Of a stretch of DNA of 64,000 nucleotides, positions 27,025 to 61,655 are shown piece by piece. The DNA comes from a virus. Taxonomy: Duplodnaviria; Caudoviricetes. Under the pieces are notes generated by a model. The model saw nothing but the letters and a program-made list of their open reading frames with translations. It made no database searches and was not told the DNA's origin. The stretch covers positions 7,932-71,931 of the IMG/VR virus record IMGVR_UViG_3300031994_000081. One strand, written 5' to 3'. Position 1 is the stretch's first letter, and each line of letters starts with the position of its first letter. Both the position numbers and the translations under genes were made by a program.

Positions 27025-30000
27025 TTAGTGTACCCAATGAGATTCCACAGAAGTATCAACAGGCATAGGCAGCTTTCTACAGAAGAAAGTGCCAGCCTTT
27101 GACATACAGTCTTGTACAACAGCAGCCATTTCATCAGCTAATTCATCAGGAACTTCAATGTTCCACTCATCATGTGCAGGAATGCACAATTTTACCTTGA
27201 ATAACAAGTCGTGCTCAATTAGATAATTCCAGAGGAAAATTGAGGCAGTCTTAAACATAACAGCACCTGTACCTTGACAAGGATAGTTAATAGCCTGCTT
27301 CTCAGAAGCGGATTTCCTTTTGAAATAATGCTTGACAGGCCACACATAGACATCTTCAATGTCCACATACACCTCTTTGGTTTCATACTCCTCCTCAGAG
27401 CCTTTCCTAGAAGGCTTCTTGACTTTATAAGTATATACACCAACACACTCTTCCAATGGAATACCACTGGAGAACTTTTGGAATAATTGAGCTACAACTG
27501 GTTTAGGTAGCTTGTTTTCTTGTCCTTTATAACCCCTATACTCAATCCAAAAGTCATCAACCATCCTCTTCCTAGCTCCAACCAACTGGTCAAAGTCATA
27601 GATATAGGCTTTATGCTGACTCAAAGGATTAAGAAGAATGAAGCCATATTTCATAACAAACTTTCTCTGTCTGTCTTGATAGGACTTCATACCACTGAAA
27701 CCTTTCATATAGTTGTCATAGATTTTCTGTGCATCCTTTATAGGGATGCCAGCATTGCTTGCAATGGTGTTTGCATCACCACCATAATTTCACCTTGTTA
27801 TCTCACAGGCTCTTTATCCTGTAATTCTTACACTTCTTTTTTTTTTTTTTTTGTGTAAGGTCGGACTATATCATCACCTCAATGAGGTGCAGGGCACTCT
27901 TGGGAGAGATTATTGTTAGGCTCACTCTCCTAGTCTCTGAACCTTCTAAACTCCTTTATCCTAAGTTTAGCTTGGCTGCTGATTACCATCTCAGGCTTCC
28001 AGCAATTCACCCTGTTTTTACTTGCTCATCACTGAACAAGGCCACAAATGTATTATACTTGTATTCTAGTTTACTTGTATTACTTGCATACATCTTTGTA
28101 TAGAGATAGTATAAAGATGCTTTACCACTGACATTAACATCATAGGCGTTACCTTTGATACTAATATGAGTTTTAATCCCTTCTTTCTCCAAAAATTGAC
28201 TAATTCTCTCTGCCCATATTTCAGAGCTTGTGGTAAATTTAGCTTCATACCTATTCCATCTTCCTCTGCTTTTGGTCATTCTTATACTACCATCACCATC
28301 AAAGTAACCATGTAATAAATCCCAATCTATCTTTATAGAAGGATTCAATACTAGGGCTTTTCTTTCTGGTATATTGAAGGTAGTCATAAACCATTGAGTA
28401 ACCGGCTTTGAATTGTAAATTACCTGTACTATTCCAGTATGTCTTTCATATACCTTAGCTTTTTCTCCTATGAAGTTCTTAAACTTCAACATAATGTCCT
28501 TATCCTTAGAGAACAGACTTATAGAATAAGCTCTATGGTTATTTACTAGATGACCATCTGCAAATATGTAACCAATCCAGTATTTTGCCTCTGGACTCAT
28601 ACATTCAAACGGGTTCTCTCTGTTTTTAATGTAATTTTCTAGATTTCTCATGCCTTTATTTGTTTATTGCAAAGGTACTATAAAAATCTAAACTATGCAA
28701 GCTTTTTAGCAATTTACTTATAGAAAACAAGTGGTTTTGTTTATGGCAAATTCAACACCCTTGGCATCCTGCCTCTGAGCTGAGAATTTCTTCTTAATCT
28801 TTTCAACAGGACAATCCCCTACAATGTCAGGAAAAGACATCTTTGCAACCAGACTATGAACATCACCACAACCCACATTAAACAGGTCAAGAAGAGCCTT
28901 ATCATTAGTGACATCGGCAATAATCCTTGACTCTTGACCACTATAGTCACAAGAAATCCATTTCATACCTCTTCCTGATATGAAGCAGGCTCTTGTTTCA
29001 GGGTCATGTGGGAAGTTTTGGAAATTCAAATAGTCAAGCTGTGCAGATTTATCCTTTCCTCCAGAGGAAAGTCTACCAGTATCAGTACCTAACTGATTAA
29101 AGTTGGTATGAATCCTGCCACTGACAGGATTGATTTGGTCTATCACATTCTGACCATAGGTAGAGGTAAGTTTCTTTGCTGCCTTATACTGCAAATACAG
29201 ATAGGCTATGGTAGACAGATGAGCCTGAGGCTCAATGACCTTGGACTCAATACTGTCTTTCCATTCACCAGTCTCCTTATCCTTTGCAAGCAGATTGAAA
29301 CCAAGTGACTTGAAGAGTGGTATTACCTGCTTTGGACTATCCCAATTTATCATACAGGTAGGTGGCAGGAATCCAAGGAACAAATCACCTTGAATGGTGT
29401 CCTTGATAAACTTCCTGTCTACCTGTTGTTCAATAGGTACTTTCCAAGCTTCAGCATAACCCCTCTTTTCACCCTTGATGTCTTTCTCAGGACATCTTTC
29501 TCCTTTCATCTTCTTTCTTGCTTTCTCCAAATCCTTAGGGTCAAGCCCCTCAGTTTGAAGATAGTGATAGGAGAATTTCTCACCTAGGGCAGAAGATACA
29601 ACCCAATCATTAAGTGCTTGAAGGAAGACAGCCTCACAGAAATTGTCTAAGTCCATCTTCCTTCTCCACCTTTCAACATCAAGAGTCACACCACAATACT
29701 CAGTATATGCAACCCAAGGGACAGACTTCTGCTCATATTCATTGGCAACAGTCAATCCTTGTGCCTGCAATTGAGGTTGCTGTGCATCCATGATTCTTTC
29801 CAGATACTTGACATCATTGGCAGCATACTCAATAACCTCTTCTGTGAGACCAGCCCACATTACCTTGCCTCGAACTGTTTTATCAAGTTCTACACCAAGA
29901 TAATTTTTTCCAGCAGCCTTGAGAGCCATACTGTGAATACCTGATGGATAGCCAAGCCACATAAGTTTCTCAGCTATAAAACCATCATAGACATTCCTCA

Positions 30001-39677: not shown

Positions 39678-41394
39678 ATTCTTTAGGCATTAAACTTATA
39701 AGTTCTTCAATCATCATATCTTTGACAGTACTCTTGGGAAGGCTCTCAAGATAATCAATCATATCACAAGCATAAAGGTGAATGAAAGCATCACTGTCAT
39801 TATAGTCGTAGTCATCACCCAAGTTATATCGGGCTGCAATTTCATCTTCATATTTCTTGTCCACTGAGTAGCACAGCATTGCATCAGTGAGAGACTGAAT
39901 CCAGTTCTGGAGTCTGCACTCATTGTAACTGTCAGTAAGCTCACCAAATCTGGCTTCATACAGCTTATCCATCTTCTCCACCCAATCACTGAGATTGAGA
40001 TTAGTCTTCGAGGTAGCCAATATGCTGCCAGTAAGCAGCTGAGTACACAGGGTCTTTACTATGTCGAAAGGGACTTTTTCAAACTGATAAAATTCAGTGA
40101 TACCATCCTCATCATCCACAGGAACAGAAGGAGAACTAAAGCCTTTTTCAACCTCTTCCTGACCCTCAAAGGCAAGTTCAGTTTGATTGGGGTTTTTGAT
40201 TTCTTTCTCCTCAGGCTCCTCTTTCTTGGGAAACCCAATAGTGGGAACTTTGGGTTCTTGATAGGGGAGTCCATACTGATTGAGGGTAATGGATTTACTG
40301 GCAGGCTGATAGCCTCCACCATATCCACCATAGCTGGAATACCTGACTTTGGACTTATTCCTCTTAATCCCATCAAGTCTCTCATCAAGCTCCTTGAAGG
40401 GTTCAGGAACCTCAGTCTTGTTGATTCTCATTTCAAAGAACTCAACACAGGTAACTTCTTTCTCCTCAACCTTGGTCTCTTGTCTCTGAGCACCCTCTGC
40501 AATGACAACATTGACATCTTCAAAGGTCTTATACTCAGTACTCTCAGTATAGGTAATGAGAGCCTCAGCCTTAATCTTCCTTCTGAGTTTTCTAGTAATC
40601 CTAGCCACATACTGACCAGCATTGCAAACAATCAAAGAGAGGAAATGATTGAGGTCACTACCCTCCTCAAGGAGAGTATTAACATCAGTGCCACTGAAAA
40701 ACGCAGCCATGTTATTATGTGACATCATGTAATGTTATCCTTAGAGTTCTTTATCTCTAAGCTCTTGTCCTTATATAAGAAAATATGATAAATTCTTAAC
40801 AAGAATATATCATCATTCTTATGATAAATATAGACAAGTTCAGACTATATCATCACCTGTATAAACAGGGCTGGGCACTCGTGTCTCTATTATATTCTGC
40901 ATAGCAGTTTCAAGAGTTAGTCGTTGAACCTTCCAGCTTTGTTAAAGGCTGACTTGGCTGCTGATTGTCCCTTATCCAGGAGTTTCCAGCAATTCACCCA
41001 GTTTTACATCCACTCACAATTAATGGATTAGAGCCTCATAAATACCAGCTCTGAGCAATCCATGCTCAAGCCTATAATTGATGATGTCAGGAGTATCTCT
41101 GAAATCAGTGAAACCACCAGTGCCAATATCCATGACACAGATGTCCACACAAGTTGCTTTGAAAGTTCCATCATCCAAGGAACCTTCTACGGTGTAGAAT
41201 AAAGTGCCACTCCATTCTACATCATGCACCTTACTACAAAGGTGCCTTATCTTTGCTTCGACCTCTTCAGGAATAATGAGGTCAAATGAAGCAGGGTTTT
41301 TCACCAGCTCTAGCCGTGGCTTGGATGCTACCTTGGTTTCTACCTTGGCTGCTGCCGACTTGACTTGCTTGGCTTTGGTTTTGCCTTTTCCCAT
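39652..41394 (-). CDS. JAB/MPN+ metalloprotease split by a group I intron (exons 41394-41023 and 40722-39652)
   Basis: VEWSG in exon 1. Splicing gives LIH|SHNNMAAFFSGTD, the complete JAMM HxH..SxxD motif. Confidence 0.88.
40723..41022 (-). mobile_element. ORF-less group I intron (300 nt) in the JAB gene
   Basis: The exon ends CAU and the intron ends G. P1 pairs ATCCAT with GTGGAT (U.G at the splice site). Core elements: GGTGAATTGCTGGAA, AATCAGCAGCC, GTTCAACGACTA, GATATAGTCTG. Confidence 0.92.
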
Positions 41395-45870: not shown

Positions 45871-46692
45871 TTAGTTCTGCTTAGGCACAAAAATCTGTGA
45901 CATATCAACCTTGATGTTATTGTTGTCATCGGAAGTAGCCACAACAAATTTCTTGCCTCTCAGGTGTAAAGGTCTAGCCTCTCTGATGGTGTTGTCTCCA
46001 CCCTCAAAGGAAATAATAGTATCTTTGCCAGACCTATAGATATATCCTATTGCATCTGCCTCACCACAAATTATATCACCCAATTTACCTGCAAGGTCCA
46101 CACTCATTTCACTCATTTCTTCACCATTCTTCTGTATCTGCTTGTCCTTCACATGGGCAACCAAGATAAGGGTTTCACAGAATGGTTTGAAGAGGTCAAT
46201 AAGTTCCTTGACAGCCTTCCTCAGATACAGATAGCCAGCACCGTTAGGCAGAAGTCTTACATCAGCCTTTGGGTCAGGTATTGGCTTGCCATTCTTGTCT
46301 TTGGCATTCATCAGAGGATTCTTTGGGTCTTTCAGCATACCCCAGTTTGCACCAACAGGAGTTGTAGTCCTATAAAGGTGTGCAGCATAGGGCAGTGCCA
46401 TTTCTTCCAGTCTAGTAGCATTATCAATAGTGATAAACCTATAAGGATATTTGTTATCCTTCATTGCCTTTTCATACAAAGCCTGCTTTATTTCAAACAG
46501 AGCATTTGCATTGAATGCAGGAACAGACATGACTGATAAAGCTCTATAGCCATCCTCCAAGTCAATGATGAGATTATCATCAAGGGAAGCCATTAAAGTG
46601 GATTTGCCACTTTTAGGCTTGCCAAACAAGACAAGCAGTCTTGGATTATACTGTTGAGCTTCACGTCTTTGTGTAGGAAGTTCTATCGGCAT
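45871..46692 (-). CDS. AAA_24/Sak4-like recombinase ATPase
   Basis: FGKPKSGKST, IIDLEDG, ITIDNAT, LILVAHVK, ADAIGYIYR. Confidence 0.8.
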   Translation of the reverse strand: MPIELPTQRREAQQYNPRLLVLFGKPKSGKSTLMASLDDNLIIDLEDGYRALSVMSVPAFNANALFEIKQALYEKAMKDNKYPYRFITIDNATRLEEMALPYAAHLYRTTTPVGANWGMLKDPKNPLMNAKDKNGKPIPDPKADVRLLPNGAGYLYLRKAVKELIDLFKPFCETLILVAHVKDKQIQKNGEEMSEMSVDLAGKLGDIICGEADAIGYIYRSGKDTIISFEGGDNTIREARPLHLRGKKFVVATSDDNNNIKVDMSQIFVPKQN

Positions 46693-46700
46693 ATTAATAA

Positions 46701-49412
46701 TTAACGTAAAGAATGTACATACTGATACACAGAGTTCATTTCTCCTGTCTGGCTGGGTCTAGGTAATTCTGACCAAGTACAAGTAGCTCCATCGAAGAAC
46801 AGACCTATGATTCCACCAAGTTCACCCAATTTGTTATCCTAGAGGCTCTTTATCCTCTAGTTCATCATATTACTATGATGTTCAGACTATATCTTCACTC
46901 ATATAGAGTGCTGGGATTTCGTGTCAAGATTATATTCTATTATAAATAATAGTTTCACTTGTTAGTCGTTTAGCCTTCTATAACCATTTAAATTATAGCT
47001 TGGCAAAGGATTGTCCTAATAATAGGAGTTCCCCTTTTTAACCCAGTTAAGAGACAGTTTTTAACTTATATTTTAAAGAATCAATTATATAAGGAGAAAC
47101 TAGGCTATTAAATTTATTAATATCTTGTTTAAGAAGCCTTATTCTATAATTAGGAGAATGTTTTATTATTGTAAATGTCAAACCTAACTTTTCCTTAATA
47201 TAATTTACAAGAATTTCTATACTTTTCAATGAGAATGAATCAGTACAAATATAATAAGAATCTTGGTGATAATAACCATCATCCATGTAAAGGAATGCTA
47301 AAGATTTAATAGTAAAATGTTCTAAGAACTCTTTAACAATTTCCTTTTTACCTGTACTGTACAGCATTGTAAAATAAGGAAATAGAGTAGGATTTGCTTT
47401 AGTTTTTATACAATAAGTTGTATATAATTTATTTGTTCTCTTATCATATCTTTTATACTCCTTAAGAGAAGCTCCTAAATTAATAAACTTATCATATAAT
47501 AACTCTGCATATTCTTTTTGTCCTATTCCGTGGTCACATTTAAATATAGGAGATTTCCAATTATATTTTGGATAATACTGAATACTGCCATCTCCTAACA
47601 ATGTACCACATAATATTTCCTTATTTTCTTGAGTTAGCTCTATAGGTTTATTTGTAGATTTTTCTCTACTATAATGTGGAGAGAGATTCAAATTTCTTCT
47701 CCATCTAAATATAGTAGAATTTGATATTCCCATAATTCTAGCTATCTCATAATCATTCATTCCTTTATTGTAATACAATAAAAATTCTTCTTTTCTTTCC
47801 TCTGAAATTTTAATTGGCATAATGTGTATTTTTTTTTTTTGCAAAGATACACACAATTTATTAAAAATTCAAGAGTGTAAGTAATTCCATTAAAAATAAT
47901 AAGTAATTTGGTTTATCTCTGTTGATAAGCACTTCAAGGGTTCTAAAGTGGTCTTTCAACCTCTTTATGTCATACCCTACTCCATGCTCATCAGGAAGAT
48001 ATGTATCCAAGCCAAACTTGAAAGGACTGAATATACCAAGAGCAATATTACAGTCTCTTCCTGGGTACTTGCTATCACCCAAGCCTGCTATGCTAGGTCT
48101 AGTCCTATTCAACTTGACATTCTCAATATTCTCATTCTCCACACTTTGTTGTTGAATGACAATAGGAGACATACCATAGTTGTTTCTCAAGTATTTAGCT
48201 AGATACTCACTCAGTTTGTCAATGGTCTGTTTCTTCGTATAACCTCTTTCAGAGTCCACCAAGTTGATGGTATCAATCAAGGGCATCACATACTCATTAG
48301 GATTGTTTGGCTCATAAAAGTCAAATGCTTGGGTATCTTGTAGTACACCCATTTCATCCCTATACTTGGCTGGCTTGGTATGCACCTTGCCATTGTCCTC
48401 AGCATATTGCTTGCAGAACTTATAAATGCCAGTGGGATTTGCTTCTGTTGAGAATATGATATGCTCCTCAAAATAATCCATTATCTTGGTTAAGTCCTCT
48501 CCCTCCAAGAGATTGAGAACTTCCTCAGGAAGAGGTTTATTATTATTGGAACTTCTTAAATCGGATGGACTAATCCTGTAACCTTTAGCCCTCATCAAGA
48601 GCCAAGAATACATTCTAGTCATAATTCTCTGAGGAGTCTCCTCAAGTGGGAAATAGAGTATCTTCATAGATACTCCTGTTCTCTTCTCATTATAGTAGCA
48701 ATATAGTAATGCCTCAAAGAGAAGATAACTCACAAGCTGACTTTTACCTCCTTTGGTATCCTGCTACACTATGTTACCATAGCCAAATAAAGACAGCATT
48801 TATGCCCAGCATCTCTATTTGTTGTAGTCTGGAACATGTCTTAACCATATTGAAATTCTTGCAAGTAATCTCTGTTTCGTATCCCACTATTACAGTTAAT
48901 CTCCTATCGAGAAAGATAATTTCAACTTAGGTTGCACCTTTATGTTCTCTACACATTTATGAAGGCACTGTAGGCTTTACTACACTTGTTTTAAAACATC
49001 GGCAATCTGATGTTACCTTCAATTTAGCTCGGCGTTGTCCTTACACATTTATTGGTTAGTGACTTTAAATGTAACTTTCGGCTACTTGTATCCACATCTT
49101 CTCTGATGCAATTACTTTCGATTCAACAGTCTTTTTCAACTATGGCTTTGTTGAGCTTTCACAATCACTGGTAGATGGCTCTATTTGTTACATTAAAAGG
49201 ATTTTCACCGAATTAGGGTGCTTCTACTATGGAATTTCTCGCCATAGCACTCAAATATTTTAAGATGTAAAGAGATAATAAGTTGCTTGTTCCCAACCAA
49301 GGAAATCATTAGAGAATCTAGCAAAAGGTGATGGTATGGTATTGATACCACCATCAAGTAGTCTTTGCCTCCTAGCCCTCAGTGTCTGAATGGTATCTTT
49401 CCTCAGGCTCAT
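46701..49412 (-). CDS. dnaB: DnaB-like replicative helicase with two group I introns (exons 49412-49262, 48759-47915 and 46826-46701; 373 aa)
   Basis: The joined frame is continuous. Walker A is FTS-Y-TKGGKSQ across intron 1; also YFPLEE, LIDTINL, VIQQQ, GLGDS, and INRD|GELGG across intron 2. Confidence 0.88.
47047..47820 (-). CDS. Intron-encoded LAGLIDADG endonuclease with an N-terminal HTH
   Basis: ILCGTLLGDGS and LAFLYMDDG. The start is 47820 (MPIKIS), downstream of a promoter. Confidence 0.88.
   Translation of the reverse strand: MPIKISEERKEEFLLYYNKGMNDYEIARIMGISNSTIFRWRRNLNLSPHYSREKSTNKPIELTQENKEILCGTLLGDGSIQYYPKYNWKSPIFKCDHGIGQKEYAELLYDKFINLGASLKEYKRYDKRTNKLYTTYCIKTKANPTLFPYFTMLYSTGKKEIVKEFLEHFTIKSLAFLYMDDGYYHQDSYYICTDSFSLKSIEILVNYIKEKLGLTFTIIKHSPNYRIRLLKQDINKFNSLVSPYIIDSLKYKLKTVS
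47842..47872 (-). promoter_or_regulatory. Intron-internal Bacteroidota promoter
   Basis: TATCTTTG with TTG 20 nt upstream. Confidence 0.7.
48760..49261 (-). mobile_element. ORF-less group I intron 1 of dnaB (502 nt)
   Basis: The exon ends CUU and the intron ends G; removal restores Walker A. Core elements: CTAATTCGGTGAAAATCC, GACAACGCCGAG, GTGTAGAGAAC, AAGACATGTTCC. Homologous to the tRNA-Leu intron. Confidence 0.85.
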
Positions 49413-59124: not shown

Positions 59125-60180
59125 TCATTTGGGAGATTTCCTTAAAGAGTTGCAAAGGCGTTGAATCCATGTCAGTTTACATTTTTTTTTTTTCATGTTG
59201 GCAGAAGCAACAAAAGGAACCATACTGCAATAGCTGAACTTGTCGTCCCAATAACTGCGAGCACCAACACTGCCCAGGCCATTGCGCCAACTGCTGCACT
59301 GAGAGTGCTCCGTCGAAGTCCAATACCATCTACTCATAGTAAATGGGCAGGCTACATGAGCAATAGAACAAGCAGCAGCAATGTAAATAAGGTTCTTCCA
59401 GACAAGTTCCATTTCACCAAGAGCAGGAATATAATGGTTTTCATTGAGCTTTGCTACAGCATTATAGGCTTCATACCTCTTGGGATTGTTCTCACAAGTT
59501 TTTTTCCAAGACTTAGTATGCTTGTAACCATCCATATCCTTCATGGCTTCTTCTGTATCAGGAATATGCTTGTCAAGCTTGCTGCTCCAATCATTATCAA
59601 TAGAGATACTCTCTATCAGATTCTGAATGTCAGCAACCACAGGCTCATTACCATTGAAACCAACAACAATGCCTTGGATGTCCTTTTTAGCACAACTAGC
59701 AGCTACAGCAGGACCAACAAAATCATTAAATACCAAGAAAGAGCCAATAGCTACTCCTTCATTATTTTTAGGAGATTCAGAGTAAACAGCAGATGCTATC
59801 TCCTCATCCATACCAGCACAATCCTCTGGCTTAACTTCCTTGTTGGTTACAAAGAGTTTCTTGGCACAGATAGTTGATTTATCAATACCATACCAATACT
59901 CAGTCCCTTCAGGAATATAAGCCTCAAGACATCTGCCTATTCCAAAGTCAGGCCATAGGCAGGCATGAATAGCACCACCATTGATTTCCCATCTCTTGCC
60001 GTCACTATAGGGACTGAGATAAGTTTCAGATGGTTGTGCAATAAACTCTTTATTGAGTTCAAACCAAGTCCTTCGACAAGGACTTTTAGCTTTGTCAGCT
60101 GATATTTCCCTGACATGCTTGTAAACCTTGATGTCTTTTGAAGCCACCATAGGTTTCTGATGATAAGTTACTAGGCACAT
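59125..60180 (-). CDS. DGR target-like protein with a C-terminal C-type-lectin-fold variable region
   Basis: YIPALGEM...WYWTSTEHSQCSSW...WDDKFSYCSMVPF. The region is rich in NNC/NNT codons (TGC AGC AGT CGC GGC GAC) and lies next to the RT remnant. Confidence 0.7.
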   Translation of the reverse strand: MCLVTYHQKPMVASKDIKVYKHVREISADKAKSPCRRTWFELNKEFIAQPSETYLSPYSDGKRWEINGGAIHACLWPDFGIGRCLEAYIPEGTEYWYGIDKSTICAKKLFVTNKEVKPEDCAGMDEEIASAVYSESPKNNEGVAIGSFLVFNDFVGPAVAASCAKKDIQGIVVGFNGNEPVVADIQNLIESISIDNDWSSKLDKHIPDTEEAMKDMDGYKHTKSWKKTCENNPKRYEAYNAVAKLNENHYIPALGEMELVWKNLIYIAAACSIAHVACPFTMSRWYWTSTEHSQCSSWRNGLGSVGARSYWDDKFSYCSMVPFVASANMKKKKCKLTWIQRLCNSLRKSPK

Positions 60181-60945: not shown

Positions 60946-61001
60946 TGGTCTCTATAGGAATTGAACCTATACTCCTCAGCTTATGAGACTGCTGCTTTCT
61001 A
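60946..61001 (-). pseudogene. 5'-truncated tRNA(CAT)
   Basis: AGAAAGC A GCAGT CT CAT AA GCTGA..ATAGG TTCAATT CCTAT AGAGACC A. The 5' acceptor strand and 5' D strand are missing. Confidence 0.65.
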
Positions 61002-61009
61002 AGTATTTG

Positions 61010-61655
61010 TGCTCCTCACCAGATTCGAACTGGTACGCCTTTTTAGGCAAGGGATTTTCTTACCACACTATGTTACCATAGCCAAACAACGACATTGCAA
61101 CTCACATGCAATTGGGTGATTCTCCCGTCGGATATTCCTAGTTGTTTGTTGTGGTCTGGACTGTCTCTTTACCATATTGAAATTCTTCAAAGTAATATTA
61201 TCAACGAATTGTTGGATTTCATACCAACCACCTCCCATTTATTATGGGTGCTCTTTTGAATCCTGCGCTATCATCGTCTTAATATAATTTCAACTTAGGT
61301 ATCTCCCGTTCAGTCTCTACACGTTTATAGTATGTAGGCATATCTGATTTGCCCTACTTTTAATGCCTGCCCAGTTCTTACGATATAGGTTAATTAGGCC
61401 TATCTGGGATACTATTTTCGCTCAGTATTGTCCTACACATTATTGATTAGTGGTCTCACGCCCATGTTTTACGCTTTGACATATAGTAAGAGGCCGGAGT
61501 TTAACCGGCAGCCCCTTATTACAAGGGGTAGACAAATCTCTCCAGATACAATCAAGGATTTTTACCGAATTTAGGAGATTCTACTATGGAATTTCTTGCC
61601 ATAGCACTCAAATTATTATTAAGTCCCTTGTGTCTACCTATTCCACCAGAGGAGC
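61010..61655 (-). tRNA. tRNA-Leu(TAA) split by a group I intron (exons 61655-61621 and 61058-61010)
   Basis: GCTCCTC TG GTGGAATAGGTAGACAC A AGGGA CT T|AA AA TCCCT ... GTTCGAATC ... GAGGAGC A gives an 84-nt Leu tRNA. Confidence 0.9.
61059..61620 (-). mobile_element. ORF-less group I intron (562 nt) in the anticodon of tRNA-Leu(UAA)
   Basis: Inserted after U34 and ends in G. The guide GAGT pairs with exon ACTT. Core elements: AAATTCGGTAAAAATCC, GTGTAGAGACTG, AAGAGACAGTCC. Confidence 0.88.

Follow-up and report, generated by a model that had tools for sequence, protein, structure and literature searches.

The bacterial tRNA introns of group I subtype IC3, known from tRNA-Leu(UAA) of Anabaena, other cyanobacteria and plastids, from tRNA-Ile of Azoarcus and from cyanobacterial tRNA-fMet, are sited in the anticodon loop, as are nearly all members of the family considered here. 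The Azoarcus intron also has the L2-P8 receptor and L9 GNRA architecture that is met again below. According to the listing of Zaug et al. (1993) in PMC3984707, IC3 introns depend on exon pairing. The same review, of 2014, stated that every group I intron recorded from phages up to then interrupted a protein-coding gene, although phages have many tRNA genes, and that reverse splicing as a route of group I introns to new sites had circumstantial support from rDNA and no direct evidence (PMC3984707). The window analysed in this work, a 64,000-nt stretch taken from a virus record of IMG/VR (IMGVR_UViG_3300031994_000081; 71.9 kb, about 71% complete), in which it spans positions 7932-71931, contains one group I intron in the Walker A codons of a dnaB-like helicase gene and another in the anticodon loop of tRNA-Leu(UAA). 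An earlier note on this DNA had taken the two for sister copies produced by tRNA-to-mRNA transposition within one genome. Both belong to one large group I family whose usual home is the anticodon loop of phage tRNAs. The helicase intron is quite probably a tRNA-derived member of this family and no sister of the resident tRNA-Leu intron; it would have been inserted once and received another core later.

The two introns of the window

The genes split by the two introns lie on the minus strand. In the helicase gene, the translated exon 1 (49262..49412) ends in UCU U at 49262, the last U being the first base of a split Tyr codon, and exon 2 (47930..48759) begins with AU ACC AAA GGA GGU AAA AGU (Y-TKGGKS). 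Between them lies a group I intron of 502 nt (48760..49261) devoid of an open reading frame (ORF) of note. The splice junction could be fixed because a homolog without the insertion, L109, which is 65% identical at the amino acid level, aligns straight across it and reads VTS-F-TKGGKT. Ligation of the exons in silico gave UCU U/AU ACC, the slash marking the junction, which reads FTS-Y-TKGGKS. To restore this Walker A motif the intron must be removed, and splicing is predicted. From the exon ends and omega-G (48760), the intron limits proposed in the earlier note were found to be exact. Its P1 loop reads AAAAUAUUU and its guide UUU-GAG, with GAG at 49252..49250, and nhmmer located the core blocks at 49256-49197 (A), 49061-49020 (B), 48960-48916 (C), 48866-48815 (D) and 48790-48760 (E). 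Searching Rfam with this intron alone returned nothing even at E<=10, and blastn of both introns against GenBank phages gave no match.

The tRNA-Leu(UAA) gene consists of a 5' exon (61621..61655) ending in C32-U33-U34, a group I intron of 562 nt (61059..61620) with guide UUU-GAG, inserted between U34 and A35 and ending in G at 61059, and a 3' exon (61009..61058) beginning with AAAAUCCC. When spliced in silico, the gene is called by ARAGORN as an 85-nt tRNA-Leu(UAA). In the sister phage G001, tRNA-Leu is uninterrupted and the empty site reads GGGACUU/AAAAUCCC. Against RF00028 the intron scored 30.4 bits in a small search, which is under the gathering threshold of 50 bits. A truncated tRNA-like element with a CAU anticodon-like loop (60954-61004; RF00005, 25.8 bits) is found directly downstream of the 3' exon.

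Several observations of the earlier note held. The four sequence blocks it quoted as shared are each present exactly twice in the window, once per element and on the minus strand, with a chance expectation of 0. Both introns have the guide GAG after exon CUU, and neither encodes an endonuclease, the longest sense ORFs being 24 aa in the dnaB intron and 56 aa in the tRNA-Leu intron. They are also distinct from the other introns of the window: the group I elements detected by Rfam at 27847-28064, 40820-41032 and 46863-47096 were unmatched by the block profiles of the family. Pairwise alignment of the two revealed near-identical blocks with unalignable stretches between them.

A group I family in phage tRNA genes

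Scanning IMG/VR for two of the conserved blocks as patterns yielded 23 and 91 stretches. With nhmmer profiles of five core blocks (A to E, 222 alignment columns), chained and applied to 105 IMG/VR loci, 64 complete family copies were obtained, 61 of them unique; the shortest measures 424 nt and the longest 1089 nt, and the median length is 515 nt. Six more matches came from a bacterial genome collection, all in dense tRNA arrays on contigs of rumen/gut metagenome-assembled genomes (MAGs). The family appears undescribed; literature searches brought up no paper on group I introns in tRNA genes of phages, although such a report may still exist.

Covariation supports a group I fold with the core helices P3-P8 and P4-P6 and the P3/P7 pseudoknot: per pair, compensatory changes were detected in up to 26 sequences for P2, up to 7 for P3, 24 for the P4 pair 42-88 and up to 31 for P7, and pairing in the core helices exceeds 95% at most positions. 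P7 is a G-binding helix of the GACU/AGUC type with a bulged A, in which G111-C175 is present in 52 of 54 sequences. Further features of the family are a GAAA loop in L2, an 11-nt receptor in P8 (CCUAAG/UAUGG), a GUAA loop in L9 and G as the last base. Insertions of 50-135 nt follow P5, and large inserts are also present in P6, P8 and P9; it is these long insertions that break the RF00028 model, which fails on the family. A candidate helix 'X' beside P7 (columns 105-108/181-184) was discarded, since its columns did not covary and 36 of 58 sequences have A.C there.

Hosts were given to 51 unique copies by splicing in silico and ARAGORN. Most frequent was tRNA-Leu(UAA), interrupted after nt 34 in 15 copies and after nt 33 in one. 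Seven copies each reside in tRNA-Arg(UCU) after nt 34 and after nt 36, four in tRNA-Ser(UGA) after nt 34, four in tRNA-Met(CAU) after nt 36, three in tRNA-Tyr(GUA) after nt 35 and two in tRNA-Lys(UUU) after nt 34. Two copies are in dnaB, and six are free-standing with no insertion site. L011 had been considered as a second protein-gene host and was ruled out, as no long ORF spans its junction.

In these 51 host-assigned copies, both guides, P1 and P10, change together with the site that the intron occupies. Depending on the site, the P1 guide of 3 nt and the exon pair as GAG-CUU, GGA-UCU, GUG-CAU, GCA-UGU or GGU-ACU, and the pair at the point of cleavage is U.G. Examples for the P10 guide, the 3 nt located 5' of the P1 guide, and the 3' exon are UUU-AAA, UUC-GAA, UAA-UUA and AUU-AAU. 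In a group of copies with odd hosts (L009:3121-3587, L020:835-1351 (= L029), L023:13069-13585, L082, L099, and L026:2315-2789), P1 would have C-G in place of U.G, as formed by exon ACUC and guide GAGU or by exon AUCC and guide GGAU. Another reading is that the tRNA lacks its 5' half in these copies, or that this half is unrecognisable; ARAGORN calls no tRNA in them after splicing.

The free-standing copies (L015:611-1122 and 1254-1848; L022:6860-7405 (= L024); L039:2110-2567; L040:4945-5498; L065:6-513) may be ribozyme genes instead of introns. They are without a 5' exon. A promoter-like motif of the TTTG type stands right before their start, and a hairpin forms their 3' end, with a U-run behind it in L039 and L040. 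The sequence of the hairpin loop complements that of the guide region (for example UUUGUG/CACAAA, UAUGAG/CUCAUA), like a mimic of ligated exons. In L015, the two family copies flank a tRNA-Arg gene. An endonuclease ORF, HNH-like and of 171 aa, was present in one of the 61 unique copies, the 1089-nt tRNA-Leu intron of L096 (3827-4915). In L018 (about 1-330), an ORF whose C-terminus resembles the DNA-binding tail of an endonuclease lies upstream of the 3' part of a copy.

Relatives of the helicase intron

Measured on 222 core columns, identity between the dnaB intron and the resident tRNA-Leu intron is 84.1%, the 28th highest of 60 values for the dnaB intron, and the sister relationship claimed in the earlier note did not hold up. 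Nearest to the dnaB intron, with 96.7% identity, is L063, a tRNA-Leu(UAA) intron on the 171-kb contig of another phage. The difference is visible in every block: identity to the resident tRNA-Leu intron amounts to 89% (A), 85% (B), 77% (C), 82% (D) and 87% (E), versus 98%, 90%, 98%, 100% and 96% to L063. L063 and the dnaB intron have the same P3 (GCACC/GGUGC) and P7 variants, and a scan for the P7/P3' variant specific to dnaB detected only L063 and one chance match in a coding region, L130. In the IQ-TREE phylogeny the two are grouped with an ultrafast bootstrap (UFboot) of 98, and a clade of the two window introns was rejected by the approximately unbiased (AU) test (p=5e-4). The outcome that the earlier note had named as refuting its claim was thus seen in part: the two introns belong to separate lineages, though to promiscuous ones that are not faithful to one site. 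Parsimony requires at least 27 changes of host site among 51 tips, with a mean of 33 after shuffling.

The helicase of G001 is 94% identical to that of the window at the amino acid level, and the exons are 84-87.5% identical at the nucleotide level. It harbors an intron at exactly the same site, a different family member with a core of the other major clade. This core is 83.9% identical to the dnaB intron of the window, 92.6% to the tRNA-Leu intron of the window and 97.2% to a tRNA-Arg(UCU) intron, with which it is grouped (UFboot 99). Two independent invasions of the helicase site, in the window phage and in G001, by different tRNA introns could produce this pattern. Monophyly of the two dnaB introns is rejected by the AU test (p=7e-7), and each is paired in the tree with a different tRNA intron. 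Yet 54 of their first 60 nt are equal, including the 9-nt P1 loop AAAAUAUUU, which occurs nowhere else in IMG/VR. Only L016 came up when an uninterrupted junction was sought for near relatives of dnaB and when IMG/VR and metagenome contigs were scanned for the 5' junction or the P1 loop of dnaB.

Recombination offers another explanation for the divergent cores. The peripheries of the introns are unalignable even between best-matching pairs, and some of their parts have relatives elsewhere. In the window tRNA-Leu intron, the P6 cassette (61335-61251) recurs with 90.6% identity in a tRNA-Lys intron (L012) and the P8 cassette (61207-61116) with 97.8% identity in a free-standing copy (L015). No match was obtained for the remaining peripheral inserts of this intron in the cassette comparison. 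At the sequence level it is demonstrable that family copies recombine at the conserved core blocks and that the peripheral domains behave as shuffled cassettes. Because the two dnaB introns share their 5' end and recombination is evident, a single ancestral insertion into the helicase gene followed by replacement of the core is plausible. With recombination of core blocks being common, this history is at least as likely as repeated entry, and two independent invasions are considered rather unlikely. Several peripheral inserts contain T-arm-like hairpins (GGTTCGA.TCC-like).

Entry into the helicase gene and comparison with known introns

A jump of the helicase intron from tRNA to mRNA is well supported. 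The direction from tRNA to helicase is indicated because the two dnaB tips are nested among about 50 tRNA tips, because the dnaB introns keep UUU-GAG, the signature of tRNA-Leu(UAA) copies, and because the helicase site and the tRNA sites are alike only at CUU/A. With AUA of the helicase 3' exon, this guide gives only two of the three possible P10 pairs. Of the transposition claimed earlier, homology and a tRNA-derived helicase intron remain, and the making of sister copies within this genome does not.

When ligated, the helicase exons (49291-49262 + 48759-48730) can be folded into a hairpin of about 14 bp (UUAUCUCUUU/AAAGGAGGUAA) with the junction in a 13-nt loop (-17.5 kcal/mol). The z value of this hairpin is -4.9 in the window and -4.5 in G001, versus -0.2, and hence no signal, in the intronless allele. 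As modelled, the hairpin resembles the anticodon arm on which the tRNA-resident introns rely and might act as its mimic.

In the proposed mechanism, the last three bases of the exon would be bound by the 3-nt guide, a U.G pair marking the point of cleavage, P10 would form between the 3 nt located 5' of the guide and the beginning of the 3' exon, and splicing at omega-G would join the exons. Guided by RNA, the intron would have entered the helicase gene or its message once, at CUU/A, and core and peripheral segments would later have been replaced through recombination with other family copies. The features fit an RNA-guided choice of site, from which we infer a reverse-splicing step; the reverse transcription and recombination steps of such a route are unsupported.

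Spread at the DNA level, by a family homing endonuclease acting in trans or by illegitimate recombination during phage replication, would require no RNA intermediate. Phage introns usually move by homing (PMC3984707), a few members of the family, the L096 and L018 copies mentioned above, encode endonucleases or endonuclease-like parts, and recombination among copies is evident. However, the helicase and tRNA sites share only CUU/A, versus the 14-40 bp read by a homing endonuclease, both window introns lack such ORFs, and across the family the insertion site tracks the 3+3-nt RNA guide as predicted for RNA-guided choice. This route is judged improbable. The production of sister copies by transposition within the genome, perhaps with the help of a nearby decayed reverse transcriptase, is not supported and very improbable: the 71.9-kb record does contain no family copies besides these two, with guide GAG and exon CUU in common and a rare P2 base (U, alignment column 20) that is absent from L063 and could be a short conversion tract, but each core block is nearer to introns of other phages, several compensatory pairs in P3 and P7 differ, the peripheries of the two introns are unalignable, the dnaB site is filled in G001 with its intronless tRNA-Leu, and no reverse transcriptase domain was detected.

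Some points weigh against a single RNA-guided entry of a tRNA intron into the helicase gene. A decayed reverse transcriptase had been suggested at 58.8-59.1 kb; Pfam revealed nothing in the frames of 58796-59176 (58.8-59.2 kb) or in a 351-aa ORF, and a six-frame search with RVT_1 of the whole record, about 71% complete as it is, gave 0 matches. The tree and the AU tests are based on a mosaic, recombinant alignment of 222 columns, for which single trees are approximate. Sampling of the family via exact motifs may have missed other protein-gene hosts or closer donors. Splicing of both window introns is a prediction from their sequences. Finally, the host gene is only weakly annotated as a DnaB-like helicase, exon 2 matching PHROG 19 'DnaB-like replicative helicase' with E=4.7e-5 and giving no match in Pfam and PDB sequence searches.

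Further downstream, the helicase region is split by a second group I intron unrelated to the dnaB intron (46863-47856; RF00028, 55 bits), which encodes a 269-aa LAGLIDADG_2 endonuclease with an N-terminal helix-turn-helix. The next gene past the helicase region (45871-46692) specifies a Sak4-like/AAA_24 annealing protein. A weak match to a ribozyme of the hepatitis delta virus (HDV) type (57042-57100; RF02682, 28.9 bits, gathering threshold 44) is located beside the phage transfer-messenger RNA (tmRNA) gene (57098-57448).

A wider picture can be offered tentatively, with its chances slightly on the doubtful side: the tRNA arrays of large rumen/gut phages may harbor a hyper-mobile modular family that is retargeted by a 3+3-nt guide, swaps cassettes and occasionally escapes to protein genes and to free-standing ribozyme genes. 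The modular, retargetable family in phage tRNA arrays is a wider result than the sister relationship originally claimed. It provides natural experiments, in which one ribozyme core is found at at least eight tRNA sites and one mRNA site with retuned guides, and in which close relatives offer both empty and filled alleles. The family also has a bearing on how the tRNA-Leu(UAA) intron originated, and expression of a phage helicase can depend on a tRNA-type ribozyme, given the predicted splicing. If the proposed history is true, this would be the first natural system for a direct test of tRNA-to-mRNA spread of the reverse-splicing type.

The closest known introns include the IC3 introns. The tRNA-Leu copy of the family is at the same position between U34 and A35 and has a very short P1, and the layout of L2 GAAA, 11-nt receptor in P8 and L9 GNRA looks IC3-like in architecture, although the 50-135-nt insertions after P5 differ from the compact P4-P6 without P5abc of that subgroup. 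In contrast to IC3 introns, the family members are about twice as long, with hypervariable insertions in P5, P6, P8 and P9, and they occur in phage tRNA arrays at at least eight tRNA sites plus one protein gene and are missed by RF00028 at its gathering score. Group I introns in phage protein genes (T4 td, nrdB and sunY; SPO1 and Twort; Bastillevirinae) are likewise inserted at conserved sites of essential replication genes. Those of T4, SPO1, Twort and the Bastillevirinae are mostly of the IA type, site-specific and often equipped with homing endonucleases, whereas the dnaB copy is an ORF-less exception in a tRNA-resident family. The spread of rRNA introns in eukaryotes (2005, PMC1299323; Roman and Woodson) similarly involves related introns at heterologous sites that share few guide-complementary bases. 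Unlike in that rRNA-to-rRNA case, the present family moves in phages, between tRNA species and from tRNA into mRNA, with the P1 and P10 guides retuned for each site.

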